In this document: positions 1 to 52,226 of the stretch, one piece after another
Layout of the letters: the number at the start of each line of letters is the position of its first letter
Position numbering within the stretch: position 1 is the stretch's first letter
IMG/VR virus record: IMGVR_UViG_3300038424_000095
Location: 1-60,648 of that record
From: a virus
Taxonomy: Duplodnaviria; Caudoviricetes
Strand: one strand, 5' to 3'
DNA length: 60,648 bases
Program-made: the position numbers and the translations under genes
Notes under the pieces: generated by a model
What the model saw: the letters and a program-made list of their open reading frames with translations, nothing else
Databases searched by the model: none
What the model was told of the DNA's origin: nothing

Positions 1-337
1 CGGTTTTGACACTCTCTTGGGGAAGATAGAGGCATCGCCAAAGACGGACTGGTGTTATGACTACGAAAAAGTAAAGGCATATGGAGGTGCCCAATGAACC
101 TCAAAGCCGCCTACCTCTGCATCGACCGTGATTCTGTATGGGAGCCCCAAGGCCCCATCATCTCCTGCCCCCGCTGCACGTCCTCTATCTGCGTCCCTCT
201 GGCAGCGTGGGTGCCCACTCAGACGATGACCGACAAGGTATGCGTGAAGGTCGCCCAACCCGAGCCGCCGAAGAGGGGGAACAGGAGATTTATGCGGGCC
301 ATGAGAGAGCCGAGGGGGGTGTGATGTCGGATTTCAG
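1..337. repeat. Terminal direct repeat, copy 1 (circular assembly overlap or terminal redundancy)
   Basis: 1-337 matches 60312-60648; the only differences I found are 127 C/T and 210 G/A. Confidence 0.95.
94..324 (+). CDS. Small Zn-finger-like phage hypothetical protein
   Basis: GGAGG RBS; CID(R/C)...CPRC motif; TGATG coupling to the next gene. Confidence 0.6.
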   Translation: MNLKAAYLCIDRDSVWEPQGPIISCPRCTSSICVPLAAWVPTQTMTDKVCVKVAQPEPPKRGNRRFMRAMREPRGV

Positions 338-512
338 CCCTGATGCCATAGCCCATTGCAGTGTTCACGGTCGCTTCTCAATCAACGATTCACCGGGGGG
401 ATGCCCGGACTGTCCGGAACCCGAGGAGGACTTTCTTTTGACGGATGAGGAGCTGGAGGCGTGCGAAGAGAGGGCAATCAAGGTCGTTGCACTCGAAATA
501 CTGGAGGCTTAA
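324..512 (+). CDS. Small hypothetical protein (CxxH...CPxC)
   Basis: ATG at 324 overlaps the upstream stop; abuts the next ORF. Confidence 0.5.
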   Translation: MSDFSPDAIAHCSVHGRFSINDSPGGCPDCPEPEEDFLLTDEELEACEERAIKVVALEILEA

Positions 513-1091
513 ATGGAAGAAACCCCTTGTATCAAAATTCCTTTTGCAATAGGCAAAAAAATATGGTGGACGGGCAACGGCTACCGAACGGAAAACGTGG
601 TGTGCCCCGAGTGCGCCGGTTATAAGTATGTCACGGTCATACAGGGGAACGGTGAAACATACACTCTTGATTGCCGATGCTGCCAACTCGGTTATGATCA
701 TCCCTTGGGATGGATAGAAAGAACTATTCACGAACATGTCCCTACGCCTTTCATTCCTGGCAGAGTGGAAATTTCCGGCCAACATATCAGATATTCCGAG
801 TCTGGACCTAACGCGACCTGTTACTCATCAATAGACGCAGAGAACCTCTTTGAAACCGAAGAAGAGTGCGCCGTGGCCTGCGAGAAGGAAAACAAAAAAC
901 AGGCCGAATGGGAAGCCGAACGGGAAATAAAAAACCTTCAAGGACGGAGAAAGGACAATGCTTGGAGCGTTCACTATTGGGGAGGGATAGTCAAACGGTT
1001 AGAACGAGAACTTGAGGTTACAAAGGCCCGTCTTGATGCCTGTGGAGAACATAAAAAGAGAGGGAAAGCTAAGGAAATATTGGAGGGATAA
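513..1091 (+). CDS. Hypothetical protein with a DnaJ-like Cys cluster and C-terminal coiled coil
   Basis: CPECAG...CRCC; GGAGG RBS; tightly packed operon. Confidence 0.7.
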   Translation: MEETPCIKIPFAIGKKIWWTGNGYRTENVVCPECAGYKYVTVIQGNGETYTLDCRCCQLGYDHPLGWIERTIHEHVPTPFIPGRVEISGQHIRYSESGPNATCYSSIDAENLFETEEECAVACEKENKKQAEWEAEREIKNLQGRRKDNAWSVHYWGGIVKRLERELEVTKARLDACGEHKKRGKAKEILEG

Positions 1092-2039
1092 ATGGAAGCA
1101 ATCGCAAAGCGTGAAGATGGCTATGGCATTGTGAATTTCGATGAAACAGCCATGTCTGTTTCGGCTGTTGTCAAACAAGTCCAGATCATTCAAAGCGTCA
1201 TGAAGGAAGTCATGAAGAAAGACGAACACTATGGAGTGATTCCCGGCACAGAGAAACCGTCTCTCCTGAAGCCTGGAGCTGAGAAGCTTGGGCTTACCTT
1301 TCGGCTTGCTCCTGAATATGACGTGACGGTTGTGAATCTTCCGAGGGATCACCGGGAATACCAGATCAGGTGTCGTCTCTATCACATCCCCACGGGTGCC
1401 ATGGTCGGTCAGGGGGTTGGTACGTGCTCCACGATGGAGAGCAAGTGGCGCTACCTCTCAGATTACGAATGGACCGGAAGGGCAGTACCGAAAGCCTATT
1501 GGGACAAAAGAGACATTGCCCTCTTGGGTGGTAAGGGTTTTGTAGCCAAGAAGAACGCAGAAAGTCAATGGGAGATTGCCAAGATCGCCGGTAAGGTCGA
1601 AAGGGACAACCCCGCCGATACCTATAACACCTGTGAGAAGATGGCGAAGAAGCGGGCTCACGTCGATGCCATCCTGACGGCAACTGCCGCCTCTGACATC
1701 TTCACTCAAGACCTTGAGGAGATAGTCGAGAACGAGGCCCATACAGACAGGTCCTCGAACGGTCAACAATCTTCAGCCAAGAAACAAAAAGAGGAAACAG
1801 AACCCCACCCCGCCTCAGAAGCACAACTCAAAAGAATAGGGATGCTCATGACGGACTGTGGTTACGACGACATTACTCGCCACGCTCATGCGTCTGAAAT
1901 AGCCGGTATACCGGCCACCATCACGAGTATGAAGGAATTGACGGTGACGCAGGCATCCAAGGTAATAGAGTGCCTTATCGCCGAAAAGAAAGAAATGACA
2001 GGAGGGACCACAAATGCCCACGATACCGTACAAAAATAG
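1092..2039 (+). CDS. Putative ssDNA-annealing/recombination protein
   Basis: Phage-type motifs HYGVIPGTEKPSLLKPGAEKL and KMAKKRAHVDAIL...SDIFTQDLE; C-terminal ASEAQLKRI helix; adjacent to an exonuclease. Confidence 0.6.
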   Translation: MEAIAKREDGYGIVNFDETAMSVSAVVKQVQIIQSVMKEVMKKDEHYGVIPGTEKPSLLKPGAEKLGLTFRLAPEYDVTVVNLPRDHREYQIRCRLYHIPTGAMVGQGVGTCSTMESKWRYLSDYEWTGRAVPKAYWDKRDIALLGGKGFVAKKNAESQWEIAKIAGKVERDNPADTYNTCEKMAKKRAHVDAILTATAASDIFTQDLEEIVENEAHTDRSSNGQQSSAKKQKEETEPHPASEAQLKRIGMLMTDCGYDDITRHAHASEIAGIPATITSMKELTVTQASKVIECLIAEKKEMTGGTTNAHDTVQK

Positions 2040-2691
2040 TTTTGGCCAGAAGGTCAAAGGAACCACAACGATTGTCGGCAATAACTGCGCCTGGGGAGCC
2101 CGAGCTCTTCAATGGTGGTATCACTCCAAAGGGCTTCAGGGAATCGAATACAAAGACATCTTCAAAGAAACCGGGGCAGACGTAGGCACGTTGGCTCACA
2201 AGCTCATTACGGATTACTGGTTAAAACAGGTAATCCTTCCTGATCATGGAGACAAACTATACGAAGGGTTTAGCGAAGAACAGTTATCTCTTGCCCTTCA
2301 AGCCCTCGATTCTTTCACCAAATGGCAGAATAACATACGCTTTGAGCCCTATGCCATGGAAATCAACATGGTCTCCGAGAAATACCAGTACGGCCTCACC
2401 CCGGACATCATAGGTCGGTTTCCTGATGGTCTAGCACTTGTAGACCTAAAAACTGGAAACGGGATTTACGACAGTCACGTATTGCAGATGGCAGCTTACT
2501 TCCAGGGATGGCATGAGGTTCACCCCGACGAGCCTTTGACTGAGGGGATTCACGTTCTGAGAATCGGGAAGGAAAACGCCAACTTTACGCATCATTGGTG
2601 GCAATCCCTACCGCCCGAAGCGTGGGAAGCGTTCATGTTGTGCAAGAGACTCGATGAGATACATCCGGTGATTGAGGCGCTTATTAAATAG
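2014..2691 (+). CDS. PD-(D/E)xK exonuclease (Cas4/lambda-exo-like)
   Basis: GTLAH...E...GLTPDII...LVDLKTG...LQMAAY motifs. Confidence 0.85.
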   Translation: MPTIPYKNSFGQKVKGTTTIVGNNCAWGARALQWWYHSKGLQGIEYKDIFKETGADVGTLAHKLITDYWLKQVILPDHGDKLYEGFSEEQLSLALQALDSFTKWQNNIRFEPYAMEINMVSEKYQYGLTPDIIGRFPDGLALVDLKTGNGIYDSHVLQMAAYFQGWHEVHPDEPLTEGIHVLRIGKENANFTHHWWQSLPPEAWEAFMLCKRLDEIHPVIEALIK

Positions 2692-2751
2692 CCCCCTTAC
2701 CCCCATGGCCGTAAGGGAAAGGCGCATAGCATAGAAGAGGGAGGGAGAAGG

Positions 2752-2949
2752 ATGAATATCCAAGGCGCTCATACCATAGAGACTCACGATTGGGGCATAG
2801 TCGTGAGGGCAAAGGAACCCGTCTACGATCTACTTTGCCGCGGATGTATCCCCATGGGCCATGAGTGGGAATGGCCTGAGACCGGAGGTTGCGGGCGCTG
2901 CCAGAAGTGTGGGGATGGACCGTGGCAGTTGCACAGGAGGAGAGTATGA
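2752..2949 (+). CDS. Small Cys-rich hypothetical protein
   Basis: Strong RBS; CGRCQKC; ATGA overlap with the next gene. Confidence 0.5.
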   Translation: MNIQGAHTIETHDWGIVVRAKEPVYDLLCRGCIPMGHEWEWPETGGCGRCQKCGDGPWQLHRRRV

Positions 2950-3266
2950 GCCAAGAAAAGGAAGTGCGGGAGCGGCAAGCCCAAGTGCTGAGGGATTTTA
3001 TCTATGCTCCTACCAAGCACCCCGGCTGTGAATACATAGCCTTGGACACGATCCTCGCCCTTCTCCCTGACCGGGAGGAGGAGGTGAGGTTGAGAGGGGT
3101 ACTCAAGAAAGCTAAACTCCTACTCTTGTTACTTCGTCCTGAAGAGGGCTTGCTTAGTTGGGAAGTCACAAAAAGCCTTCTTGATGCCACGAGAAGCAAA
3201 ATCAACGCAACCCTATCTGCCATCGATCAGGCCCTTAACCCCGCCCCGGAGAGGAGGCCCAAATGA
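2946..3266 (+). CDS. Hypothetical protein
   Basis: AGGAGG RBS before ATG 2946; ATGA coupling on both sides. Confidence 0.55.
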   Translation: MSQEKEVRERQAQVLRDFIYAPTKHPGCEYIALDTILALLPDREEEVRLRGVLKKAKLLLLLLRPEEGLLSWEVTKSLLDATRSKINATLSAIDQALNPAPERRPK

Positions 3267-3742
3267 ACGATGCCACGAACCGACTGATCACGGAGGCGCA
3301 AGGGCTGTGCTGGCATGTTCCTGATCCTCACCATGCAGATGAGTGTCTGAAATGCCATTCAGCCTTTCAGCGTGATAACTATGAGCCGTACAACTGCTGC
3401 ATTGAGGCACGTCCCGACTACTCCCGCGACTGGTATCCCGTCCTCCTCTACCTCCGCGACGATAGCAAACACGGTCAAGAGGTCGAGGTGGGGTGTTGGG
3501 AATGCTCCAATGGGATGGTGCAGGAACCATACAATAAGGTTATGAAAGGGGCAATGTCTCCATACGTATGTCCCCTCTGCCACGGTAAGGGCCGCGTCAG
3601 GATTGGGGTGTTCACTTATGACGAGTTCAAAATCAAGCAATGGGGTGTTCACATAAACGGACTACCAGATCGCCTCATCGGCCCGCCCCTCGCCGACGCA
3701 GCAGCTGAATTTCTCAAGACTTTGATAAAGGAGACCAAATGA
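3263..3742 (+). CDS. Hypothetical protein, ABA-sandwich-like with Zn-finger insert
   Basis: NRLI.E..G...PDYSRD...LADAAAEFL pattern; CWEC...CPLCHGKG. Confidence 0.55.
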   Translation: MNDATNRLITEAQGLCWHVPDPHHADECLKCHSAFQRDNYEPYNCCIEARPDYSRDWYPVLLYLRDDSKHGQEVEVGCWECSNGMVQEPYNKVMKGAMSPYVCPLCHGKGRVRIGVFTYDEFKIKQWGVHINGLPDRLIGPPLADAAAEFLKTLIKETK

Positions 3743-3940
3743 GAATAGACCTCACCAAAGGAGGATAGAGAATGACCGCAGACGAGTTTCAATGGTTTTA
3801 TGAACGGTTGATGGAGAAACTGTCCTCCATTGAAAGCCTTCTCGAAAGGGCTCTTCAGCCTATTAGTTATGACGATGTTGCCCAGGGGACGCTGAAAGCC
3901 CTTATCGATCAAGGGATCATCGCCAAGAAGGAGGACACTA

Positions 3941-4306
3941 ATGGATAGAATCCTCACATTAGCAATCTGCCTCATGCTCATCTCGACCCCCGCCCTCGCC
4001 TGTGGCCATGGTCACGGTCACGGAGGCCACGGGCATAGTCATGGTTACGGCCATCATGGCGGCCAGTGCGGCAAGCCGAGCGGGACCATTGCTCCCGTTA
4101 CGGGGATTCCCGTATCGGCCCCTGTCGCCCCTTCTCCTGTCGCCCCTGTGAGCCCCGCTGCGCCATCTTCACCTGCAGCTACGGCCCCTGCATCCCCCCC
4201 TGCTTCTGCCCCCTCCAGCGCCCCGGCAGCCGCGGCAAGTGCGCCTTCTCAGGGGGTGAGTCCGACTGGATCGTGGAATTGTCTCTACGAGAGGTGCGGG
4301 AAATGA
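3941..4306 (+). CDS. Secreted His/Gly- and Pro/Ala/Ser-rich low-complexity protein
   Basis: Signal peptide ending ALA; GHGHGHGGHGH tract; AGGAGG RBS. Confidence 0.6.
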   Translation: MDRILTLAICLMLISTPALACGHGHGHGGHGHSHGYGHHGGQCGKPSGTIAPVTGIPVSAPVAPSPVAPVSPAAPSSPAATAPASPPASAPSSAPAAAASAPSQGVSPTGSWNCLYERCGK

Positions 4307-5157
4307 TACGGGTTTTCCCCCGTAGGACTAAATGGACCCCCACCGATGAGTCCGCTTTCGTGGGCGATCCTCCTATGTTTCGACCGACCGATAGATGTAT
4401 TCCGGTAAGGATATCTGTCACCTTTACGTGGGACATTCCCGAGGGAAACCGTTTGTGGCGGGCGTGGAGCAGCTTTTATGACGACGTGCAGATCGGTGGT
4501 CCTGCCTTCGGCGATCCTGGCGGGGAGTTCACCATTGGGAAGTTTATCAAGGAAGGGGCTACCTTCACGAGTAGGGGTTGTATCCGCTCGTGCCCCCATT
4601 GCTTCGTTCCTGAACGGGAAGGCAGGAGGATGCGGGAATATCCCATAAAGCAGGGTCATATCATCCAAGACAACAATCTTCTCGCCTGTACGGACCAGCA
4701 TATAAAGGCTGTCTTCGATATGCTCAGAAGCCAAAGAAAGGCCGCGATCTTCTCGGGAGGCCTCGACATCCGTCTATTAGAGCCTTGGCACCGGGAGCTT
4801 ATCGACTCAATTAGGGTGGATGAACTATGGTTTGCCTGCGACTCCGCTGCCATGCTGAAACCGTTGGAGCGGGCGGCCTCCATCCTTGATGGCATCCCTC
4901 AGAGGAAGCGCCGTTGTTACGTGATGATCGGATATGGAGACGAGACGGTCATTCAGGCTCAGAAGAGGGTAGAGGCCGTCTATGCAATGGGTTTTGATCC
5001 ATTCTCACAGCTTTATCGAGGAGAAGGAGAAAAAGAATACATGCAAGACTGGAAAGACTTGAATAGAAAGTGGAGCAGACCAGCAGCATATAAAGCAGCA
5101 AGTGCCCCTTCTCAGGGTCATGGGGGGAATTGCCCGGATATTAGGTGGTGTCGGTGA
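4303..5157 (+). CDS. Radical SAM protein (phage type)
   Basis: CxxxCxxC (GCIRSCPHC), DNNLLA, GGLDIRL, YVMIGY; ATGA-coupled start at 4303. Confidence 0.85.
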   Translation: MIRVFPRRTKWTPTDESAFVGDPPMFRPTDRCIPVRISVTFTWDIPEGNRLWRAWSSFYDDVQIGGPAFGDPGGEFTIGKFIKEGATFTSRGCIRSCPHCFVPEREGRRMREYPIKQGHIIQDNNLLACTDQHIKAVFDMLRSQRKAAIFSGGLDIRLLEPWHRELIDSIRVDELWFACDSAAMLKPLERAASILDGIPQRKRRCYVMIGYGDETVIQAQKRVEAVYAMGFDPFSQLYRGEGEKEYMQDWKDLNRKWSRPAAYKAASAPSQGHGGNCPDIRWCR

Positions 5158-5268
5158 TGACGCCCTGGTACTATTGGATGCTTCAACGTAGCTCTTGGTG
5201 GATTGAGCATGAGTCTTATCAAGGAGAAGTGTATCTCATAACGACTGCTTAATTGGGGAGATGGGTAA

Positions 5269-5478
5269 ATGACAAAATATCATTTGCTAAGAGAAGCCAG
5301 AAAGCTGATTGACATACTTGATACATGGGGAAATGTTCTTGTCCCGACGATACCAGGACAAACCGAAACCTGCGCCCACGACCGGCTTATGTGGATTCTG
5401 AGTCAGTTGAGAGACGATTATGGGGTAACTACGCAAGAGGATTTACAAATGGGCATCGCTTCTCTTTCTGAGGCATAA
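5269..5478 (+). CDS. Hypothetical protein
   Basis: ORF with GGGGAG RBS in a gap between genes. Confidence 0.45.
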   Translation: MTKYHLLREARKLIDILDTWGNVLVPTIPGQTETCAHDRLMWILSQLRDDYGVTTQEDLQMGIASLSEA

Positions 5479-5547
5479 CCCTTGACGATGCAGGTTGAAC
5501 AGTTTTACGATAGCTCCATACTCAATTCAGAGAATGGAGGCTATTCA

Positions 5548-6699
5548 ATGGCCGGAAGTATAAGATGTGTCGGCTGTCACTCCGGTATCGATGAGCGGTC
5601 CAATGGGATATGCCCGAAGTGCAAAAAAGCTAAGGGGTATGCCATTAATTTCTACTACGAAGGCCGACACCATCGAATCAGGCTCGGGTTGAATTGGACC
5701 GCAACCCGGGTGAAGCTTCGTTCCCTGCGTGCGTCGATAGATGAGGGGCGCTTTGATCCCGTTGAGTGGGGCCTTGTCGATCAGAGCCCGAACAGCCTGG
5801 GGCTTCGGCTGTCCGAGTGGTTTGATGAGGTCAAGGATGACACCGCCCTCACCGAAGGGACAAAGACTATGTACGCCACTCAGGTACGGCGCATACTCGG
5901 GAGCCCGCAAGCTACCGTGAATCTTCTTCGCCTGGACATCGAAGACTTCAGGGCGATGTTCAAAGCAATGCCCCTGAGAAACAGCACGAAGCAAACCACG
6001 AAAAAGGCGCTCAGAACGTTTTTAACATGGGCAAGGGGTAAAAGGTACATCCTCTACATCCCAGCTCTCCCACGGATAAGCAGCGACGATGCCAAGGCCA
6101 AATACATCCTCACGATGGAGCAACAACAAGCCGCGCTTGAACGCTTGCCGGAAGGACGAAGAGGATTGTACCAGCTCATGATGAACATTGGCGCGAGAGT
6201 TAGTGAGGTTCTGACGCTCCAGGTGTCCGACGTGAACTTTGCCCGAAAGGTGGTCATCCTTCAGAGAACGTGGAGTGGTGACACGATCAGGGAAACCACG
6301 AAGACCGGGAAACGTAGAACGCTGCCCCTGACTGATACCGCTTTGGAGATCCTCGCAGAAGCAATAGGGGACAAGATCGGGAACGCCTATATCTGGTCGA
6401 AGACTGACGGCACCCCTTACATAAGACAGGAGATTTACACCGAATGGATGAACAAGTCGGGCCTCGATGTCCCTCTGAAGGATGCGACAAGAAGGACGTT
6501 CGCTACACGACTGAGAAACGAGGGTACGCCCCTTGAGATCATCCAGGCTTTACTCGGGCACAAGAGCGTTAGGATGACGGAGAGATACCTTGACGATGAC
6601 GTGGAATGGGTGAGAACGGCGTTGAAGAAAGCCGATATAGTGAATATGGTACGAGCTCGTAACGAGGCAAACGCTAAGGATTCAGAGGAAGATGTCTAA
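5548..6699 (+). CDS. int: Tyrosine integrase with N-terminal Zn ribbon and arm-binding domain
   Basis: GARVSE, TKTGK, DATRRTFAT (variant of HxLR), LLGHKS...TERY catalytic signature; GGAGG RBS before ATG 5548. Confidence 0.93.
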   Translation: MAGSIRCVGCHSGIDERSNGICPKCKKAKGYAINFYYEGRHHRIRLGLNWTATRVKLRSLRASIDEGRFDPVEWGLVDQSPNSLGLRLSEWFDEVKDDTALTEGTKTMYATQVRRILGSPQATVNLLRLDIEDFRAMFKAMPLRNSTKQTTKKALRTFLTWARGKRYILYIPALPRISSDDAKAKYILTMEQQQAALERLPEGRRGLYQLMMNIGARVSEVLTLQVSDVNFARKVVILQRTWSGDTIRETTKTGKRRTLPLTDTALEILAEAIGDKIGNAYIWSKTDGTPYIRQEIYTEWMNKSGLDVPLKDATRRTFATRLRNEGTPLEIIQALLGHKSVRMTERYLDDDVEWVRTALKKADIVNMVRARNEANAKDSEEDV

Positions 6700-6825
6700 A
6701 AACTACCTGCTTTCATTGTTAAATGTAATGCGCTCCGTACTGAAATACAATAATAAACCATCTGAACCTACTAAAAACGCCTTTTTACGGGCTACCACAT
6801 CCGTACCGAGGTCGTACCGAAGTAC
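6648..6825. other. Putative attP with arm-type direct repeats
   Basis: CGTA(C/A)CGA(G/A)G-like repeats at 6648, 6658, 6736, 6802 and 6813 around an AT-rich intergenic stretch directly after int. Confidence 0.6.
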
Positions 6826-6840
6826 ACAGGAGGATATAGC

Positions 6841-7392
6841 GTGGATCTAGGAACGATTCGATGCGCAGGGTGCCATACCGCACTTCTTAGCCCTATTTGC
6901 CCTAAATGCGGCAAGGAAAAAAACTGCTACATCAATTTATATTGGACGAGGTCGGAAGGTGGCGACAGCCATCATCACAGAATTCGGCTTGGCCTTCCTT
7001 TCGATGAAACAAAGAAGGCACTTGAAAGATTGCGCAGCGAACTCAAGTCTAACCTTCTTAACCCATTTGAATGGGGCCTGCAAGGCTCACTGAAGGGCAC
7101 TGTCGTGGCTCTGAGTCCCAAGCGACAACGTTTATGGGTGAAACTCATCAGAGAAGACGGCACAGCAGTCCAGATGCCCCGCGCCCATTACAACTGGCTT
7201 CAAGCAAACCCTTTTTTCAAAGACATTCCGAAAGGTTACACTATCCACCACCTTGACCTGGACGAGACCAACGACGACCCTACTAACCTCGTCTTGTTCT
7301 ACGGAAAGTATCACACGGCCTATCATTATAAAACCAAGCGACTTATGGATGTCAGACGACTTGAGGTTTTCATCCCGGAGAATGTTCTATGA
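6841..7392 (+). CDS. HNH endonuclease fused to an integrase-like N-terminal Zn-ribbon/arm-binding domain
   Basis: N-terminus aligns with the integrase N-terminus (IRCxGCH...ICPKC...IN.Y...HHRIRLGL...PxEWGL); C-terminal IHHLDLDETNDDPTNL...HTAYH; AGGAGG plus GTG start. Confidence 0.85.
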   Translation: MDLGTIRCAGCHTALLSPICPKCGKEKNCYINLYWTRSEGGDSHHHRIRLGLPFDETKKALERLRSELKSNLLNPFEWGLQGSLKGTVVALSPKRQRLWVKLIREDGTAVQMPRAHYNWLQANPFFKDIPKGYTIHHLDLDETNDDPTNLVLFYGKYHTAYHYKTKRLMDVRRLEVFIPENVL

Positions 7393-7666
7393 GGAAAGCG
7401 CAAAGACTGCCCCTCTCGCTATCTGTCTCGCTGCCCTTAAGGCATTAGAAAAGTGATCCCCACCCCCTTCCTCATCGCCCTCCTCGGCATACTCTTAGGG
7501 GCAGGATACCACTCCTGGCATGACCCGGAGATTCACCCTGCCCCCAAGATTGAAAGTAGAGCGCAGCAGTCGGAAAGGACCGCGCCCTTGGTAGCCGTTC
7601 GAGTCCGACCTACCTATCCCGCCGACGCTGTAGCGGGTTCCTCATTTCCTGCCCCTAGGATTGTTG

Positions 7667-8059
7667 TTACGCAGCCGGGGGAGCAGCCGCCGCTACCGCC
7701 GCTTCCATCGCCGCCGCCGAGTCCTTCAACGTCTGCGCCTTCGTTGCAAGATCCGCCGCAGCCGCCGCTACCTTGTCCGCATTCCCCGGTTCTGCCGCTA
7801 CTTCAGTCAGAAGGGTCTGCATCTCTGTGATGATGTCCTGCTGTGCCTTGGCAATCGCTGTGACGCCATCTCCGATCGCTGTGTTGCTGTCATTCAATGC
7901 TGCTACTGCTTCTTCCATCGTTGCCATGTGAATATCTCCTTTGTTTTTGATTGCCTGGACTATGCCCAGGATTATGTTTAGAGCCTTAATAATGGCTACC
8001 TGATTCACAAGGATCGCGCTGAGTCGGTTGTATATGCCCCGGAACATTTCAGCGAACAT
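7667..8059 (-). CDS. Ala-rich coiled-coil protein at the end of the late operon (alternative internal start MATMEE)
   Basis: Amphipathic heptad pattern; internal AAGGAG RBS. Confidence 0.6.
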   Translation of the reverse strand: MFAEMFRGIYNRLSAILVNQVAIIKALNIILGIVQAIKNKGDIHMATMEEAVAALNDSNTAIGDGVTAIAKAQQDIITEMQTLLTEVAAEPGNADKVAAAAADLATKAQTLKDSAAAMEAAVAAAAPPAA

Positions 8060-8836: not shown

Positions 8837-9433
8837 TCATCCACCCTTTTCATCCTCTTTGCCGTGGGTTAGAAACGGATCGAGAGAAGCGGTATAACTA
8901 CCCTGGTCCCCCTCTCTTGCCCCTGGCCTATGAGCAACGCTGTTTGCCCCAGGCTGTCCTTGTGCATCTCCTGGTAGATTGTCGGAGGTGGCTGTTCCTC
9001 CGCCCGCGCAATTGACTGTGACAGCCGGTCCAGTAGGCTGTTGGGCATTCCCTGATACATTGTTCACCCCCGGAAGGTCAGCCGGGCCGATCCCCGGCGT
9101 GGACATGATGGTAGCGTTGAGAACGTCCTTGAGATGTTCCGTATCCACGTTAGGGTGCTGCATAGCGAGGTTGCCGAGAGCATTGGCCCACTTCTCTCCA
9201 CCCGTTATTTTGTCGCCCCCTTTCTTTATGGCGTCGGCCGCCTTATTCTCTTGGGCAAGCATAGCCACGTTGGCATCCCTTATGAGAATGTCTTCAAGGA
9301 ATTTCAGAAAGCCAAGATGATACCGCTTGCGAACAGTATCAAGAATCTTCGTCAGGATCACGATGGCGATTGTGCCCGCTACTGGGCAAATATAGTGCAA
9401 AAACACATAGGAAAACAGATCACCCCACCCCAC
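8837..9433 (-). CDS. Holin-like protein (LL-H-type architecture)
   Basis: One N-terminal TM, helical domain with G.EK...A motif, disordered tail; GGAGGT plus GTG. Confidence 0.55.
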   Translation of the reverse strand: MGWGDLFSYVFLHYICPVAGTIAIVILTKILDTVRKRYHLGFLKFLEDILIRDANVAMLAQENKAADAIKKGGDKITGGEKWANALGNLAMQHPNVDTEHLKDVLNATIMSTPGIGPADLPGVNNVSGNAQQPTGPAVTVNCAGGGTATSDNLPGDAQGQPGANSVAHRPGAREGDQGSYTASLDPFLTHGKEDEKGG

Positions 9434-16314: not shown

Positions 16315-19300
16315 CTACATCGTTCTCAATATCTTCCGGTATTTTTCAATCTCGTCCTTTGTGAGCTCATTTTTCTCTACGGCATTGGAGAACTTATTGT
16401 AAAAGATAGGCTTGATCGCCTTCTTCTCTTCAGGTGTAGCCTTGTCTATCCCCGTAGCGAGCTGCTCGAGGGTGATCCTCTTGGCCGCAGCTACGGCAGG
16501 GGGCTCTTTCGCCTTCTCGTGGATACTCTCCATGTCGGAAGGAGTGAGTTTATGTTTCCGGATGGCCTGGCGGATCTGCGCGTTGGCCGTTGGGTCATTC
16601 TCCTTGACGGCCTGAGTGAGCTTGGACTTGAGCTTGCTCTTATCGGTCGAGGGGAATGATGGGCCCTCGAGGTTCTGGGCATACTTTTCAAAATCCGACA
16701 TGTATTTGTAGTTCGAGATACCCACCGATCCAAGAAGACCGTTGACGATCTTCCCGAGGGTGGTCTCGCCAGTGTTGCTCTTGAGAAGCCCCTGCCCCGG
16801 GATTGGGACCCACGATGAGAGGATGTCTTTCACGAGTTCCATCGTTCCCATCCGCTTCCCGTAGAAGTCCCTTCCGGTGGCAACCTCGACGAGTGGCCGA
16901 CCCCAGAGGGGATTGATCCGGTGATACCAGAAGCCCCGGGGGTCCGTCACGAGGTGCATCATATCGCCAACCACTGACCTTGGGGTGTACTCACGGCCGC
17001 CAACCATGACTGAGAAGGGCCTATTCCAGTGGGTCTTGTGGTCATCCCCGATGAGCATGTTCGTTACCTGTGCCGCTGTCGCCATGATGATCGCCCCGCG
17101 GAGAAGAGCCATGAACTGCTCCTTTCCCTTCGGTCTTGCGGCCTGGGCGAAGAACTTCAGGCGCGCCTCGAGGAAGTCAGGTGCAAGAAGTCCTATCCGG
17201 AGAACATCCTGCAGCGTGGGGTTCCTGCCGAGGTACTTGTAGTTGAGCTCACCGAAAGCGGCGTTTGCCTGCTTGGCCGCATTGTCGAGGAGCTGGTCAC
17301 GGGTGAACTTTCCCGAGGCCATGTCCTTCGCGTAATACTTCAGGGCCCGGCCTACGGCATGTTCGAACATGAGGGCCTTGAGGCGTGGGATGTAATCCTG
17401 AAAGAGCCACTCCTGATAGTGCTTAAGGGCATCCCCGACCAGAGGAATCCTGTTCCATAGACCGCCGGAAGCCATCCCTTCGGCGAATTCCTGCATGGCC
17501 TTCCCGCTGTAAAGCATGAGCCCGTGGTCGACGCCCTCGCGCAACAGAGGACGGGTGTCGAAGTCTATCTCGGGTGCCACAAAGGGGTTGACCTTATGAA
17601 AAACCGCGTGCTCCCCAAGGTGAAACTGATGGAAGGGCCCTATGAGGATCGTTCCCTTGATGAAGGCCCCACCATGGAGGGCCGTCCTGCCTGGCTGCCA
17701 GCCTCCGACCACTGGCACCTTCGCAGGGATTTCGAAGGTCTGGATCTTCGACTTTCCAAGAAGGGCATTAAGCCGGCCGAAGGCGTCCCGGTGAATTCTC
17801 ATGTTGCCCTGCATGAGAACGGGGTGTCCGTTCACGTCGTTGCCAAGCCATTTCCACTTGCGGAGGGCTGGATGGTCAAGAGGCCGATAAATCTCTCTGC
17901 CCTGATCGTCGTACCAGTCCTTGCCTTTTACATTCGGCTTGACTGCAAAGGCTGAATTGTCCCGTTCAACTATGTGGTCGCCAATGGAGGGGACCTTCTC
18001 GCCGAACATGGGCGTTGTCTTGTTTCCCTCTATGAATTTCTCGGCCTCGTCCTTCGAATCGAAGACCCTGAAGGCTCGGTCCTTGTCCCCGCGCATGACG
18101 GCGTAGGAGGTCTTCTGGATGGGTTCTCCCATGCCCCCGACCACTACCGTAGGTCTGCCGTCGGCCTCAGTGGATGCCATCAATTCCTTGAGGGCCTGGC
18201 GGGCCAGCATTGCTTCACGGATCGATCGCTCATGGGCGACCACTTGATAGCCTATCCTCTTGTCCGTGGGGTCATAGCCAAGCTTCTCGCCTTCGTGGTA
18301 ATTCGCCCATATCCGGTGAAGGGCTTCCCGGGGATTCGTCTTAAAGACCCCCGCATTAATCTGAGAGATAATCTTCTTCCCGGCCTTCTCCGGCTTGTCC
18401 TTCCACTGGTGTCGGACGTAGTTCTCGACATAGTCGATCTCGAGACCGGAATCGTTCGCGGCCTGCCAGGTATCCTGCATATCTTGGGAGCACTTTTCTG
18501 CCCAGGCGTGTTCTTCCGGGGTGAGCTTCATTGCATCAAGGTAGCCTTGTTTGTAAGGCGCCTTGGAATCATCGGCCCAGGCCTGAAGGGTGGCGTTGTC
18601 CCCGCCAGCTTCGATGTAGTTGCTGATGGCCACCTGCCTCTTCTCGGGGATCTCCGCATTGATCTGCTTGGCCAGCTTTGTGAGTTGCCATTCAAGGCGC
18701 TGGAGAGCTCCGGTGTATCGCCCGATGATGCGCTTACTTTCCGTGCTAACCGGAGGTTTCTTGTAGGCTTCCTTGAGGTCGTTGAGTGCCGTCTTGACCG
18801 GTTCGATGACAGGGGAGAAGAAGGTTTTTGGTCTCTCCGGTCCCTTCTCCGCCTCACGCTCTTTCCCGATATTGTCGAGGAAGTCCTGGAGGAGAGGAGG
18901 AAGGTCCTTGTCTTTGAGGACCACCTCGCCGCGCTCATTGGCGAGAGGGGATTCTGCATAGGCTTTCTTGGCTGCCTCGAATACCTTCTTCATTGAGAAC
19001 ATGAACCGTTTGTAGAGGTCCCCGAGGACTTCCTTCATCCGGTCCAGGAAGTCTTTCCAGGTCCTGGCCCCTTCCTGGTAGACGTGGGTGGCAATCTTTT
19101 CGAGGTGCGGATAGGCGGCCTTTGCGTCGTTACCTGCCTCCTTGATCGCATCAAGGCTCTCCTGGATGCTGAAACGGGGCTGCCCCTTATAGAGGACATC
19201 CTGCTTCATGGAGGGGGTGATATCGAGGGAGTGGACGGCAGTGAGTTTTTTCTCAGGTACGCCTTCCGCGACTTCAAGACCCAATATCTCGGCGAGGTCT

Positions 19301-22300
19301 TGGCTTCCATCTTCGTTCATCGCTTCGATGAGAGACTTGCCCCGGTCCATGACATGAAGAACCGATTCCGACGCGCGAGTAATTGCCACGCGTTCTATGG
19401 AGTACATGAGCTTTTCGCCAGTAATCGGACTAACCTTCGTGTTCCCGTATCCCCTGGAGAGCTTGTAGACTTTCTCCAAATCCTCTCGGGTCACTTCGGG
19501 GCGTCCAGTCATATCGGAGGTATCGTGATAGGTGACGGGTGCCCACCCTTCTGACGTGTCGACCTTCGTCTCCCCGACCTTCGCTCCCCACTGTTTGGCA
19601 TACTTGTTCATGAAGGCAGGGAGCATGGTATCGTAGAAGCCCTTCATGCCCTCGCCGCCGACTTTTAGGTCGAGACCGGAAAGGGATTTCAGCTTCATCC
19701 CGTCTTCGTCCATAACGGACTTGCCTTCACTGGCGGCTATCTTGTCGGCTATTTCCTTGCCGAAGAGGTCGGAGACTCTCTTGATGTCGACATTGTCCTC
19801 GTGGAGAACCACGTCGCCGTCTTTTATTGCTCTTACCCAATACTGATCATCCCCGTAGTCGTCGTACTGAATTCTGTCGATTTGCTTGGAGAGATCATAC
19901 CGTTCTGCCTGCTGCTCGCCTGTTGTGAAGGCTATCCGATCATACCCATTCTCCGAGGCCCAGCGTAGCATCCGCTTCATGACGAGTTCCGGCCAGGTCT
20001 TTGAGAAGGGGGCGGGGGGGACAGTCTGTGCGGCATAAAGATTATTTCCCGTCTGCTCTACATTCTCCCGTTTTGGCCCAGAGGCATAGAGATGGCCTTC
20101 TTCATCTAGGGCCATGAACATTTTGGTTCCTATCGGGCGTCCGCTTATCTCTGCAGCCTCTTCGCTATCAATGGTGTACTCTTCTATTCTGAGTGGCTTT
20201 GTGTAGCCCTTCTTCTTGCCCTCCTGGTGCCAGTCGCTCTGCACTTCTTCGATGAAGAGGACTTTCTTACCGTCAGCGTCTACCCGATCATTGAAACGGA
20301 CGTGGGCCAGGACGTTGGGTTCGTCCCAATGAGGTGAGGCGTACTTGCCTTCATAAATGTTACTTTTCTGAAGCCTTCCCTGTTCTGCCCATAGTCTCTG
20401 TTCCTCTGCGCCTACTTCTGATGCGGGTAGATTTCGAATCTCTTCTAGTCTTGCCCTTATTTCAGTGAGACGGCCCTCCTTGCTCTTTACGCCGGTGTCT
20501 TCTTTGCTTGGCAGCGTAAACAGCATCTCCCGGTAGTTCTCGCCCATGGGAAGGGTGTAGGCGGAAAACTTGGTGGGCGACTGCTTTGTTTCGTTCCTAT
20601 CCTCGTAAGCCGCCCTCAATTCTTTTGCCAAAGGCTCTAACGTACTGCTGAGTTCGTTTGGTGTCCTATCTCCTCTTGCGATGTCTAGGGCGGTATCGCG
20701 CGCTCCGCTATCTGTAAAATGCTCATTCTGGGCTTGCCTAATGAAAGCCTGTTCTGCTTTTTGGAGTCGTTCCTGTCCTTCTCCCCCCTTCACCACTTCC
20801 TTCATCTGCACCTGGTTCTCTTTGAGGAAGTCCGCGATCTCGCCCTTCGTGACCTTGCCCGTCCTGCCATCAAGCCAAGGAACCAGTCCCGACCACTTCA
20901 GTTCGTCCGCCTTGTACTCGCCCTTGTTCGCCCACGATTCAATGAGGGTTCGATAGCTCTCGGGCGTGCCCGTGCCGGGGAGCTTGGCGTCGAGGACTCG
21001 GGACATTTTGGAGTAGAAGGTGGGAGCGATGTCCTTCGCACCTGCGTTAAACACAGGCGGTCCTTTTGATCCCGTCCTGCCACCTGTCTTCTTGTATTCA
21101 ATGAGAGCCTTGTCTACCGCGCTCTTTACGGCTTTTGGATCGGTGGTCATGCTTTCAAGTTCACGACCGGCAGCGAACTGAGCTATCAAATCGCCCATGA
21201 CTCTTGTTCTCTGCGATTCCAACATACCAGTGCCTTCGTAGTCCGCCTGGAGTTTTTTCTTATAGATGTCGAGGTTTCTAAGATAGGGCTTTACTTCTTC
21301 CAAAAGTGGTTCATAAATGTCCGGCCTGCTATGTTGTAGAGTATGCATGATCTCATGCTGTGCCGTTGCCGCGACATCACGGGCGTTAGTGTTGAGATAG
21401 AGGACTGTCGGTTCTTGAGGAAGAGTGAATCCGCCTATCTTTATGGCCGATTCCGAGCCATCGAAAAAGTATGCATCAATGCCGTACGATTTCGCATCGG
21501 TAGCTATTTTTCGGTGTTCTGCGGTGAGTTCGACGGGGATTTTGACGTGATCCTGGACGAATCCCTCAAGATGCGTCCCCAAAATCTCCTGGACTTTTTT
21601 GATTGCAGAGCTGTATCGTTCGGATAGTAACGTATTCCGCTCTGTGACGTCAGGCAGATTATTCTCGGTTCTTCCTTCATTACCCTCCTCCTCTATACTG
21701 AATGTTGGCGGTTCCTTGCGTCTCGGCTTCAGCCTCTCCCCTATCTGTTCGGCGGTCTGCTTCTCCTCTCCGAGAGCAAGGCGGCCACCTCTGACTTCTG
21801 GTTCGCTAAAGGTAAGTTGGTGGATAGGCTGGTTGCCGGCGAGAACTTGCTTGACTTCTTCTTCTGATTTTGATACTCTTTCTTTGTTATGCCTAATCTC
21901 CTTTGTAGTACTTGTGGAACCGTAATTAACCGCGCCCCGTGCTTGATCAGAGGAAGCAAGACTGGATTCTTCTTCTGTTCCCGGTTGTGCAAAACTACTT
22001 TTTTCAACCACAAGATCAGGATGGATTGCCTCACTTGCGGCAAGGGGTTCTACGTTTCTCCCTCTACCCTCGATAATGGAAGAGGGAGGTTCTGTAGTAA
22101 AACCTGCTATGCGATTAATCAAGCTACTGGCCGTATTAATTCCAAGGGATACCGTTTTATCAGGGTTGACGGTAAGAGCGTTGCCGAGCACAGAATCGTC
22201 ATGGAACGTCATCTTGGTAGGCGACTTCACAGAAGTGAGGTGATCCACCACATTGACGGGAACAGACTCAATAACGAAATCTCTAACCTTCGGATCATGA

Positions 22301-46305: not shown

Positions 46306-48531
46306 CTATGTCTCCTTATCATTGTCGCTCTTTACCCCGTTAATCTGTCCCTTCTGTATGTCCACAGCCACCTTGGCGGCATCTACCCTTCTCTGCTTGT
46401 GGGCGTCGTGGATGTCCGCCACGGCCTCGGCTCTCTTGATGACGAGGTTCTCCTTGTCGAGCTCAATTCCGGCCGCTATCTTCGCCTGGGCCATCTTCTC
46501 GGTGTTGATCTGCTCTGCTATCAGGGCCGTCTCGGCCCGTGCCTTCTTGGCTTGCTCGCCCTTCAGCATGGCATCGGCCTGTTCCTTCACGTTCGTCTGT
46601 GCCTGTGGCTGTTGTCCCGTGAGCGCCCGTTGAAGTATCTGCATGAACGGCGGTATCTTGCCGGCCTTCTTCGCACGCTCGAACATCTTCGGGTCCATCT
46701 TGGCAAGCGTGCCAATGGCGTCTATCAATCCAGGGGGACATCCTATCTCTTTAAGCTCATTGAGGAGGCTCGACAGCGGGCCTTGTTTCATTCTCTGGAT
46801 GATCTGCTGCTTCCCTGAGTAGTCGAGCTTCTCGAGGAGGGCTTCTTTATCAATCGCTCCCATCTTCGCAAGTTCCAGGGCTTCCTGACGCTGCTGAACC
46901 TTGGAGACGGGCAACGTCGAACCGGTGACGAAGGTAAGATTCGAGGGGATGATAAGGTCCTTCCCGCGGATTGCTTTGCTCACCTTGTCGCCGTTCGAAT
47001 TCGTGTAGGCAAGCCACCTTTCCGTTGCGCCTTCCCCTTCGTTGTAGAAGTTCTGTGCGCAGCTCATATACATCCTGCCCGTCTCACGAATGAGATAGCC
47101 GTAATTGCGGGTCTTGCCCCGCATCATAGTCGACGCCCGCTCCATAAGGGCAGCAAGGGCCTTGAACGCAAGCTGGCCATTCGTATTCTGTGCCTGGTCG
47201 AGTTCGAACGTGCCGGCCACGAGAAAGAAGAGGTCCTTGAACAGGGTGATGTACGCGCTGAGGTCCTGGTTCATCGGGGGCTGTTCAAGCCACCTTATCG
47301 CCTGGGCCTGTTCCGCGTTCGAGGGGTTGACTACCGTGGCTTCATTCGTAAATTCATCGTTCGACACCCCGGACGTGATCGGGTTCATGACTTTCATCCT
47401 GGCGCCGATGTCTTTGTAGTAGATCAACTGACTGATGATTTTGTCGAGTTCACGGACGAGTTCTTCTACCTGCTGCAAGTCGCTCTCTCCCCATGCCGAA
47501 GAGGTGTCGTCAATCGAGTTGGCCAACGCGACGGGAAAACGGTCCCACAGGTATGTCTGTCTGGCAAGGTCTTCTTCAAGGGCAGGGCTGATATTCGGGT
47601 TGCTCTTGTCCTGGAGGACAACCTTGCCTGCGGAGCACACCTCGACGTAGCGGATATTGCCCTTGTACAGATCGTTGTCTTCCTTATCCTTCCGGTAGTC
47701 ATGGCAGTAACACCGCACCAGGAGGGTCTTGTCGTCCTCTCCGTCGAAGAGCATCCCGCCGAACTTCGCGTAGACGGTCTTGATTGTGTTGAGGATCTTG
47801 ATCATCATGGTCGGTCCGCCCTCGCGGGTAACATCCGAGTTGACGTCCCGCCGCTCGTCGCCCATCTCTTTGAGGACTTCGCCGTCAGGCTTGATGTCCT
47901 TAGCCTTGTCTGGGTAGAGGCGCCTGAGACTGCGCACGCTCATGGGCTGCCAGACAAGAAAGGCCTCGCATCCCTGCAGGTCCAGGGGATCGCAGAGTTC
48001 CAGTGGCCACCATCCGAAATGATAGGGGTCGAGGACGTGCGTTTCTACCTCGCCGTAGCCCTTTTTGAGACGCCGGTTGAAGCATACCTCTACGCCTGTG
48101 ATGCCGTAAATCTCTCCGGTCCGGACTGCCCGGGCGTACCGATGCTGCTGCTCGGTCTCGTTCCACCAGTGCTCGGACTGATGAAGCTGGTCTTCGAGAA
48201 CGTCTTCCTGTTCAGGCTGCAACTGCCCCTCGGCGTGGACGTTGAAGGTCGGGTCGTTGTCGGTGAGGACGTTGACTGTGCGCTGAATGTGTGTGTGGGT
48301 GAGGTTGATGGACGCGAGCTTGATGTTGCTGACGTTCTTTGCCTGCCAGTGGAGATTCTTGACGAGTTTGTAGAACTTCATCCAGAGGTCGTGCAAGCCT
48401 AACCTTTTCTTCTCCTCGACGATCTTCCGCCACATCTCCATAACGGCCTCGCCCACAGCCTTGGGGTCTGACTTGGCAGGGAGCAGCTCGTAGTCTTCGG
48501 GAGAATCTTTTATTGCTTCGGGCTCAGGCAC
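46306..48531 (-). CDS. Portal protein (P22-like)
   Basis: 741 aa; position between terminase and scaffold; P22-type helical layout with C-terminal coiled-coil barrel. Confidence 0.85.
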   Translation of the reverse strand: MPEPEAIKDSPEDYELLPAKSDPKAVGEAVMEMWRKIVEEKKRLGLHDLWMKFYKLVKNLHWQAKNVSNIKLASINLTHTHIQRTVNVLTDNDPTFNVHAEGQLQPEQEDVLEDQLHQSEHWWNETEQQHRYARAVRTGEIYGITGVEVCFNRRLKKGYGEVETHVLDPYHFGWWPLELCDPLDLQGCEAFLVWQPMSVRSLRRLYPDKAKDIKPDGEVLKEMGDERRDVNSDVTREGGPTMMIKILNTIKTVYAKFGGMLFDGEDDKTLLVRCYCHDYRKDKEDNDLYKGNIRYVEVCSAGKVVLQDKSNPNISPALEEDLARQTYLWDRFPVALANSIDDTSSAWGESDLQQVEELVRELDKIISQLIYYKDIGARMKVMNPITSGVSNDEFTNEATVVNPSNAEQAQAIRWLEQPPMNQDLSAYITLFKDLFFLVAGTFELDQAQNTNGQLAFKALAALMERASTMMRGKTRNYGYLIRETGRMYMSCAQNFYNEGEGATERWLAYTNSNGDKVSKAIRGKDLIIPSNLTFVTGSTLPVSKVQQRQEALELAKMGAIDKEALLEKLDYSGKQQIIQRMKQGPLSSLLNELKEIGCPPGLIDAIGTLAKMDPKMFERAKKAGKIPPFMQILQRALTGQQPQAQTNVKEQADAMLKGEQAKKARAETALIAEQINTEKMAQAKIAAGIELDKENLVIKRAEAVADIHDAHKQRRVDAAKVAVDIQKGQINGVKSDNDKET

Positions 48532-49968: not shown

Positions 49969-50156
49969 ACTGTCGTTACTCCATATTCCTGAAACTGCTT
50001 GCGCTTAGCTTCCATAGCGAGCTCGATGTCGGCCTGGTCACGCCAGCTTTGCCAAGGGACCCTATGATGTTTGATACACGAAAGCCATTGAAAGCTGCGC
50101 CCGCCATACTGCCAAACCTGAACAACTTTCTTGCACTCAGGGCAATATGCCTTCAC
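49965..50156 (-). CDS. Small Zn-ribbon hypothetical protein
   Basis: CPEC...CIKH; ATGA-coupled to terL. Confidence 0.5.
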   Translation of the reverse strand: MKAYCPECKKVVQVWQYGGRSFQWLSCIKHHRVPWQSWRDQADIELAMEAKRKQFQEYGVTTV

Positions 50157-51802: not shown

Positions 51803-52226
51803 GCTGTATCGGTTCTCCCCCTTTTCCAGTGACCTGAACATTCTTCGCCGGTTCATCCCCTCTCAATTCCACCAGGCGCCACAGGGCGTCCAACTTATCG
51901 TAGAGTTCAAACTCGACGGTCGATGTTTTAAACATCTGCTCGCCGTCCTTGCTTTCGGTGATTCGTGTGTGTTCCTTCACCTTTTTGATAGCGGCCAGTT
52001 TACGCTTACCGCCTTTCTGGGCCTTGATTTCCTCAAAGGTATTAGCGCATATCTCCCCTCCTTCGGCAACCGTCAGGTAGTCATCGATGCGGGAGAACGC
52101 CACAGAGCAAAGCTCTTCGGCAATGCGTTTCAGGGTTCCCCCAGCTTTCTCGATGGTCTTGATTCGTTCAGCCACGACGATATCTGCTGCAATAGAAGGT
52201 GCTGAATCAGAAATAGAAATGCTCAC
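51702..52226 (-). CDS. terS: Terminase small subunit
   Basis: EELCSVAFSRIDDY...AIKKVK...FELYDKLDAL...VTGKGGEPIQ. Confidence 0.85.
   Translation of the reverse strand: MSISISDSAPSIAADIVVAERIKTIEKAGGTLKRIAEELCSVAFSRIDDYLTVAEGGEICANTFEEIKAQKGGKRKLAAIKKVKEHTRITESKDGEQMFKTSTVEFELYDKLDALWRLVELRGDEPAKNVQVTGKGGEPIQHELTCGPEVRAIVEDLTKLILGRPGESDQGVGA

Follow-up and report, generated by a model that had tools for sequence, protein, structure and literature searches.

What does a phage gain from a nuclease whose first 80 residues resemble the start of its own integrase? This question is raised by a 60,648-bp stretch of phage DNA (IMG/VR record IMGVR_UViG_3300038424_000095, a linear record estimated to be ~88% complete), which we refer to at its full length as the window. 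Here, a tyrosine integrase gene of 383 codons (P0001; int, with product Int; positions 5548 to 6699, plus strand) is followed by a gene encoding a 183-residue protein (P0002; 6841 to 7392, plus strand). An earlier inspection of the letters and open reading frames (ORFs) of this DNA, termed here the sequence-only reading, had given the coordinates of both genes correctly and had proposed that the second protein joins the integrase's arm-binding domain to an HNH nuclease, across the phage attachment site (attP). We examined in turn the two halves of P0002, their relatives, the divergence of the shared domain, and the DNA between the genes.

P0002 joins an integrase-type domain to an HNH nuclease

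The assignment of P0002 as a chimeric HNH endonuclease gene draws on ORF, alignment, profile, and structure-model evidence. Its reading frame starts with GTG, 6 nt behind a Shine-Dalgarno sequence (AGGAGG; 6829 to 6834, plus strand). By BLASTP, residues 3 to 76 of Int align with residues 4 to 80 of P0002, with 34/80 positions identical (43%) and 45/80 positive (E value, 4e-19). This confirms the N-terminal domain of ~80 amino acids that had been proposed to be common to the integrase and the next gene. A search of the record itself with P0002 found only the P0001 and P0002 places (E value for the pair, 1.2e-15). Because both searches find the same pair at such E values, the alignment is real and far beyond chance.

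Within P0002, the integrase-type domain, or head, comprises residues 1 to 80 (6841 to 7080, plus strand), as indicated by an AlphaFold2 (AF2) model together with identity to Int. The head carries a zinc ribbon formed by Cys8, Cys11, Cys20, and Cys23. The equivalent residues of Int are Cys7, Cys10, Cys22, and Cys25, within an N-terminal domain that the alignment with P0002 places at residues 1 to 81 (5548 to 5790, plus strand). These four cysteines are invariant in all nine N-terminal domains that we aligned. The AF2 model of P0002, based on a 51-row alignment, has a mean predicted local distance difference test score (pLDDT) of 84.9. In the head, strands are predicted at residues 5 to 8, 29 to 35, and 44 to 48 and a helix at residues 54 to 73 (pLDDT of 85 to 95), with the four-Cys ribbon located between the first and second strands. 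In this model, three antiparallel strands form a sheet against which a C-terminal helix packs, the topology of the AP2-integrase superfamily. A flexible linker (residues 74 to 85; 7060 to 7095, plus strand) follows, as judged by a mean pLDDT of 51 for residues 71 to 80 and values of <50 for residues 76 to 80. By sequence, the head is specifically homologous to the domain with which integrases of this family begin.

The rest of the protein consists mainly of a nuclease domain of the HNH_3, or I-HmuI, type (residues 86 to 166; 7096 to 7338, plus strand), recognized by structural match and family conservation. Profile matches of the C-terminal half are to Pfam HNH_3 (E value, 3.2e-5; 23.9 bits) and to six PHROG families annotated as HNH endonuclease (whole-protein E value of ≤0.1). 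When the model was compared with 48,161 chains, the top match placed residues 79 to 166 on residues 5 to 106 of I-HmuI (chain 1u3e_M; Z-score, 7.9; root mean square deviation [rmsd], 2.6; 82 residues aligned). A Z-score of 7.9 lies at the upper edge of the common background, but the match extends over the entire domain and the next-ranked chain scores 2.3 lower. Foldseek also pairs P0002 with I-HmuI (probability, 0.99; E value, 0.042), and 17 matches with E values of ≤0.001 were retrieved from BFVD, the named ones being mostly phage HNH or homing endonucleases and one described simply as a DNA binding protein. A search of PDB sequences with P0002 gave no match below an E value of 0.33.

P0002 retains 20 of the 21 positions that are conserved in ≥90% of 42 relatives, and the retained motif residues include His136, His137, Asp139, Asn144, Asp146, Asn149, His158, and His162. 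Because these residues are kept and the fold and family matches agree, the nuclease looks functional. From sequence and model, this part of P0002 looks like an intact HNH_3 domain of the I-HmuI type, and the claim that the second protein runs on into an HNH domain thus held up.

The fusion is so far a singleton

To date, the combination of the two halves is confined to a single phage. When 1.84 billion representative proteins were searched exhaustively with HMMER (E value of ≤0.001), 189 matches were obtained; the best 150 of these were listed, and the 149 non-self proteins among them were rescored separately with the head and the nuclease half of P0002. Among these 149 listed relatives, 7 match the head only, 142 match the nuclease only, and none match both. 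The head-only relatives are the integrases P0045, P0055, P0108, P0113, and P0150 (366 to 498 amino acids) and the fragments P0124 and P0130. The best nuclease-half relative by phmmer, among those listed, has an E value of 1.5e-19.

Word-indexed searches of 5.8 billion clusters returned only P0002 itself, both with the whole protein (73 candidates) and with residues 1 to 84 (5 candidates). An integrase profile compared against shorter proteins yielded three matches, namely, P0002 and two catalytic-domain fragments, and thus no second fusion. None was found either when IMG/VR was scanned with P0002, P0001, and an alignment, or when genome contigs were scanned with the same alignment; the latter scan also gave no prophage copy. 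A search of the ESM Atlas gave no usable match. The 90% identity cluster of P0002 has three members, found on 4, 3, and 1 contigs; two have the same sequence (with V or M as the first letter), and the third is a 72-amino-acid call from Met112. Since these searches returned no second example, the fusion is a singleton so far. A conserved synteny of integrase, attP, and fusion gene, for which the sequence-only reading had suggested a search, was not found in the collections searched.

The relatives of the nuclease half suggest how the chimera may have been assembled. These HNH proteins are typically ~170 amino acids long (mostly 150 to 200), with the nuclease first, then a Pro-containing linker and a C-terminal domain, and all of those aligned (45/45) match Pfam HNH_3. 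A model of one of them (P0004; pLDDT, 91.9) has an HNH domain at residues 1 to 82 (Z-score to I-HmuI, 7.3) and a C-terminal sheet-plus-helix domain at residues 105 to 163. The latter is built from strands at residues 105 to 109, 112 to 120, and 126 to 131, within a three-to-four-strand sheet, and a long helix at residues 142 to 163. P0002 ends ~17 residues past its nuclease domain, the C-terminal domain of the relatives being absent, and when the window was searched by tblastn with the 149 relatives, no remnant of that domain was seen downstream of P0002.

The P0002 head and the P0004 C-terminal domain have structural neighbors in common, and these align over nearly the same residues: 1h10_A (59 to 116 for the head and 57 to 116 for the C-terminal domain), 6lvb_B (76 to 131 for both), 6d7k_H (21 to 74 for both), and 9g6k_UG (324 to 392 and 324 to 393, respectively). 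The simplest reading of the models is a module swap, in which a sheet-plus-helix DNA-binding domain would have disappeared from the C terminus and a similarly built one would have been acquired at the N terminus. Phmmer alignments of the head to the C-terminal domains of several relatives were below threshold (E values of 0.35 to 15 in the 149-sequence set) and do not count as evidence.

The head is not a fresh copy of the neighboring integrase

Over 71 aligned codons, the heads of P0001 and P0002 are 50% identical in nucleotide sequence, with a proportion of synonymous differences (pS) of 0.95, which is saturated, and a proportion of nonsynonymous differences (pN) of 0.37. The same codon is used at just 7 of the 34 identical residues. 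These figures show both the age of the shared domain and that selection has acted on it. The P0002 head is 48, 48, and 45% identical to those of P0001, P0045, and P0055, respectively, and these integrases are 62 to 68% identical among themselves. A six-residue loop in the P0002 head is also present in P0045 and P0055 and is missing from P0001. In a tree of the nine N-terminal domains, in which one of six inner branches is supported, P0002 does not fall beside P0001. Given the similar distances, the saturated pS, and the pattern of the loop, the P0002 head is not a fresh copy of its neighbor.

The saturated synonymous sites rule out a recent in situ duplication. Of the possibility, raised earlier, that the gene is one-off duplication debris, the recent duplication is thereby removed; the one-off character stands, in that a second example was not found.

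One segment of the head sets the neighboring pair apart. P0001 and P0002 have the same third strand, HHRIRLGL, which is different in all other aligned integrases; at none of its eight residues do the two genes use the same codon. It is through the sheet that AP2- and arm-type domains contact DNA. The identity of this strand hints at a shared DNA specificity of the Int and P0002 heads, as far as an eight-residue match noted post hoc can indicate.

Contigs from four further peat runs contain two differences across P0002, each in one low-depth contig. By codon reading, C6969T is synonymous and G7075A replaces Gly79, where the head ends, with Ser.

The integrase and the DNA between the two genes

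P0001 is identified as a tyrosine integrase by Pfam and PHROG matches. Its catalytic domain matches Pfam Phage_integrase (E value, 4.7e-25; residues 200 to 351), its core-binding region gives a weak match to Phage_int_SAM_1 (E value, 0.079; residues 89 to 162), and the protein matches the PHROG integrase family phrog_1 over residues 28 to 372 (E value, 2.1e-40). The N-terminal domain (residues 1 to 80) therefore precedes the SAM-like match, which in turn precedes the catalytic domain, and the same order is found in the full-length integrases P0045, P0108, and P0150. P0113 has ~100 extra residues ahead of the N-terminal domain. The closest integrase relative, P0055 (60% identity; locus L003, 3116 to 4286), gives two overlapping tblastn segments (3116 to 4051 and 4041 to 4286). 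Its predicted C terminus departs from the family consensus, which suggests that the frame shifts near residue 306.

The 141-bp region between int and P0002 (6700 to 6840) has no notable ORF signal and is a candidate attachment or regulatory region. A consensus scan predicted no promoter-like or terminator-like site within it. Since no terminator-like site separates the two genes, which lie on the same strand with a gap of 141 bp, int and P0002 are probably cotranscribed.

The repeats noted in the sequence-only reading are present here. Two tandem 11-bp direct repeats, CGTACCGAGGT (6802 to 6812) and CGTACCGAAGT (6813 to 6823), lie on the plus strand 18 to 39 bp ahead of the P0002 start (repeat family D20). 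They are candidate binding sites for the shared domain and the only exact tandem copy. Their 8-mer, CGTACCGA, occurs 4 times in the window, compared with 1.0 expected; among 100 shuffles, a count of 4 was reached twice. Two degenerate copies, each a one-mismatch match on the plus strand, lie nearby: CGTAACGA (6658 to 6665), within the 3' end of int, and CGTACTGA (6736 to 6743), within the intergenic region. By rough arithmetic from the window-wide rate (42 matches), ~0.1 copies would be expected in the ~170 bp that hold these four.

No tRNA or tRNA fragment was found at the int-P0002 region, and Rfam gave no match at its gathering cutoff and one chance-level snoRNA match (E value, 3). A search of a phage collection for attP gave no match. 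Contigs from the four peat runs contained no host junction or joint; loose ends occurred just at a 36-bp conserved piece of the integrase and at places far from the gene. With no tRNA, no host junction in the contigs, and no prophage copy, the placement of the pair across attP was not borne out. At three related integrase loci from the metagenome scan (L003 to L005), the contig ends within int or no more than ~90 bp from the end of the match, which may reflect assembly breaks at an adjacent attachment site.

Probable function of P0002 and alternative explanations

Is the head an arm-binding domain, as the sequence-only reading had labeled it? This can reasonably be supposed from its N-terminal position in the integrases, its modeled sheet-plus-helix topology, and the tandem repeats nearby; no significant profile or fold match to arm-binding or AP2 families was obtained. 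For the head part of the P0002 model, the top rows of the fold search are halves of PH domains (Z-scores of 4 to 5.6), and a profile of the head compared with PDB sequences gives zinc-ribbon matches only (E values of at least 0.008).

On balance, we lean toward P0002 being a chimeric homing-type endonuclease that a DNA-binding domain of integrase origin directs to its sites, which are probably arm-like repeats. It would be a free-standing HNH_3 endonuclease of the phage homing-endonuclease kind in which an integrase-type head replaces the usual C-terminal domain. The head would bind DNA repeats of the integrase-arm type, the best candidates being the tandem CGTACCGARGT units at 6802 to 6823 and related sites in kindred phages, and the linker of ~12 residues would allow nicking or cutting by the nuclease no more than one or two helical turns away from the occupied site. 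P0002 would be expressed together with int. The likely payoff would be selfish or competitive: the module next to int would home into related genomes during coinfection, or P0002 would exclude them. A housekeeping role in the phage's own integration appears less likely. A more specific proposal, which we hold as tentative and doubtful, is that P0002 is an att-directed nuclease. Through a coadapted head, it would read the arm sites of the neighboring integrase family and cut beside them, so as to copy the module next to int into related phages or to destroy competitors and satellites with the same integration system.

Several results weigh against the favored account. With respect to the head, Pfam Arm-DNA-bind_2 matches two of the nine N-terminal domains (best E value, 0.16), hhalign against lambda Int gives a probability of 0.23% with a single local alignment on the equivalent strand-helix, and the best solved AP2 match (PfSIP2; 6sy0_A; Z-score, 3.6; rmsd, 3.1; 53 residues aligned) ranks 38th, within background. 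The HNH_3 score of P0002 is 0.9 bit below the curated gathering cutoff of 24.8 bits. With respect to a swap between like folds, hhalign of the HNH relatives against the integrases gives a probability of 0.33%, and Pfam AP2 matches the C-terminal domain of 1 of 45 relatives (E value, 0.039), so the swap is read from the models. The repeats are modestly enriched, by a definition set post hoc. Were P0002 to bind the repeats ahead of its own gene, the phage would need protection from self-cutting, and none was identified. As for mobility, the contigs of the four peat runs include no allele without P0002 and no joint, and scans of IMG/VR, the metagenomes, and genome contigs retrieved no syntenic relatives of the int-P0002 locus. 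Finally, the fusion is known from one phage.

P0002 might instead be an ordinary free-standing homing endonuclease, the head of which merely descends from an integrase and reads an unrelated target, such as a conserved gene of related phages, so that int and the repeats would carry no meaning. We consider this rather unlikely. It draws support from published descriptions of DNA-binding modules being freely shuffled in the HNH_3 class (PMC5714182; PMC10448857), from a head that is as far from P0001 as from other integrases and is not placed beside P0001 in the tree, and from the weak repeat statistics. It does not readily account for a third strand that is identical at 8/8 positions to that of the neighboring Int alone, despite saturated synonymous divergence, or for the position of P0002 directly after int, with the sole exact tandem repeat copy just upstream of its start.

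P0002 could also be an accessory recombination factor, a quite improbable role in our assessment. Acting in directionality or against integration, the head would compete or cooperate with Int at the arm sites, with the nuclease silent or nicking to bias the reaction. P0002 lies on the same strand as int and is likely cotranscribed with it, the putative DNA-contact strand is common to Int and P0002 and coconserved, and no recognizable excisionase was found among the neighboring small ORFs by Pfam or PHROGs. However, a full nuclease motif is kept, although it would be superfluous in a factor that only binds DNA, and searches of an open-access library aimed at an HNH-based directionality factor found none. 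Moreover, the related integrase loci L003 to L005 end at or near int, where a partner gene would be out of view.

That P0002 is a nonfunctional by-product, a chance fusion in decay, seems highly improbable. The fusion is indeed a singleton, and the gene call of one assembly starts only at Met112. However, the frame is open over 183 codons behind a good ribosome-binding site, all four zinc ligands are kept along with 20/21 conserved nuclease positions, and pN is far below pS. In addition, just the two differences described above (C6969T, synonymous, and G7075A, Gly79 to Ser) separate the gene from the contigs of four further peat runs.

Genomic setting of the int-P0002 pair

The window comes from a tailed phage of peat soil, with genes for the portal (46306 to 48531) and the large terminase (50153 to 51856) on the minus strand. 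The position of the latter rules out a reading of P0002 as a terminase-associated HNH protein. All or part of the window sequence occurs in 11 peat-metagenome runs, with no RNA data set listed among them.

Genes lie on the plus strand from ~138 to 7392 or 7830 and are followed by a long block of minus-strand genes; therefore, int and P0002 close the plus-strand block. Directly after P0002 is a Pro-rich ORF with a hydrophobic N terminus (7453 to 7830, plus strand), which overlaps a convergent ORF of 130 amino acids (7667 to 8059, minus strand) by ~160 bp. Neither ORF has a family match in Pfam or PHROGs, and the coding strand switches at this point. The first plus-strand terminator-like hairpin 3' of P0002 is at 7954 to 7970 (consensus scan; counts of such sites are not above those of shuffles), and int and P0002 may share one transcript. 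A scan with the downstream gene at 8837 to 9433 gave no match.

Just upstream of int, a radical S-adenosylmethionine (SAM) domain protein is encoded at 4303 to 5157 on the plus strand (PHROG 9298; E value, 4.7e-22). Relatives of this gene are found on 12 IMG/VR contigs, with 41 to 61% identity (82% over a 55-residue fragment). At these 12 loci, no integrase of the P0001 family and no HNH gene were found within 6 kb, and hardly any other ORF of the window is shared (one further ORF in each of two loci). A small ORF (3941 to 4306, plus strand) with a hydrophobic N terminus, a His/Gly-rich run, and a Pro/Ala/Ser-rich tail overlaps a longer, GTG-started reading of the radical SAM gene.

Phages that host homing endonucleases commonly carry several. 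A second HNH_3 gene in the window (21889 to 22497, plus strand) encodes P0159, a protein of 202 amino acids that matches Pfam HNH_3 at 39.8 bits. With its Cys-rich N-terminal repeats and tail resembling a helix-turn-helix, P0159 has a DNA-binding makeup unlike that of P0002. Its gene is antisense to, and codon aligned within, a minus-strand ORF of 2,818 amino acids (16315 to 24771), such that both strands are open for 609 bp. No group I intron was found in this region by Rfam.

Comparison with known systems

In the literature, HNH_3 nucleases are described as modular homing endonucleases with NUMOD, helix-turn-helix (HTH), or AP2 DNA-binding domains (PMC5714182), an N-terminal HNH domain with a C-terminal AP2 domain is a recognized class (PMC10448857), and AP2 and integrase N-terminal domains are grouped as one AP2-integrase superfamily (PMC1702500). 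The chimeric nuclease Odn (gp88 of phage ICP1) acquired the origin-binding domain of a satellite replication protein and thereby cuts the satellite origin (PMC8263062). Because the HNH-AP2 class, the AP2-integrase superfamily, and Odn have already been described, a fusion of an HNH nuclease with an AP2-integrase-superfamily domain is known in kind. P0002 is a rare, though comprehensible, rearrangement of modules that were already familiar. The statement in the sequence-only reading that no fusion of this kind had been described was thus too strong (PMC5714182; PMC10448857; PMC1702500). What is new in P0002 is a head that is homologous to the zinc-ribbon domain of a tyrosine integrase, that is N-terminal, and that adjoins that same integrase; searches of an open-access library aimed at such a protein found none.

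Among described systems, the HNH-AP2 homing endonucleases of phages, cyanobacteria, and protists, including the "IPA-HNH" proteins of ICP1-like phages, resemble P0002 in being small free-standing proteins with an HNH_3 domain tethered to a compact sheet-plus-helix domain (PMC10448857; PMC5714182; PMC1702500). Unlike in these proteins, the binding domain of P0002 is N-terminal, has a four-Cys zinc ribbon, and is a homolog of a tyrosine integrase domain (E value, 4e-19) rather than a generic AP2 domain; the usual C-terminal domain is also absent. Were P0002 just a shuffled homing endonuclease, it would be a neat, minor example of module exchange in the AP2-integrase superfamily.

P0002 shares its nuclease-domain fold with I-HmuI (PDB entry 1u3e). 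Sequence identity between the two is 13% over the structural alignment and 21% in the 81-column Foldseek alignment. I-HmuI is an intron-encoded HNH nicking endonuclease of a Bacillus phage, and its helical and HTH DNA-binding parts lie C-terminal to the nuclease. P0002, in contrast, is free-standing, and no intron was found by Rfam.

The head resembles the arm-binding N-terminal domain of lambda-type integrases, both in its position in Int, ahead of the core-binding and catalytic domains, and in its three strands and helix (by model), with tandem repeats of ~11 bp nearby. It differs in having an additional zinc ribbon, in not matching lambda Int or the Pfam Arm-DNA-bind families significantly, whether by profile or by fold, and in also occurring detached from any recombinase, namely, in P0002. 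If the head does read arm sites, attachment sites would be possible targets in conflicts among phages, prophages, and satellites, beyond their role as recombination substrates. P0002 would also be a compact (~180 amino acids) two-module nuclease with a specificity domain that has a paralog with a knowable binding site, which would be useful for retargeting studies.

A parallel in strategy is Odn, likewise a nuclease of a homing family with the DNA-binding domain of another mobile-element protein (PMC8263062). Odn combines a T5orf172-type nuclease with a replication-initiator domain, and its target, the satellite origin, is experimentally proven (PMC8263062). P0002 instead combines an HNH_3 nuclease with an integrase-type head whose donor family is that of its own neighbor gene. 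If the head does read integrase arm sites, P0002 would join Odn as a natural example, the second, of a nuclease whose specificity comes from a DNA-binding domain borrowed from its own target system. If its activity is in fact directed to attachment sites, it would represent an integrase-guided counterpart of Odn and the first known case of a nuclease that reads the arms of an attachment site.

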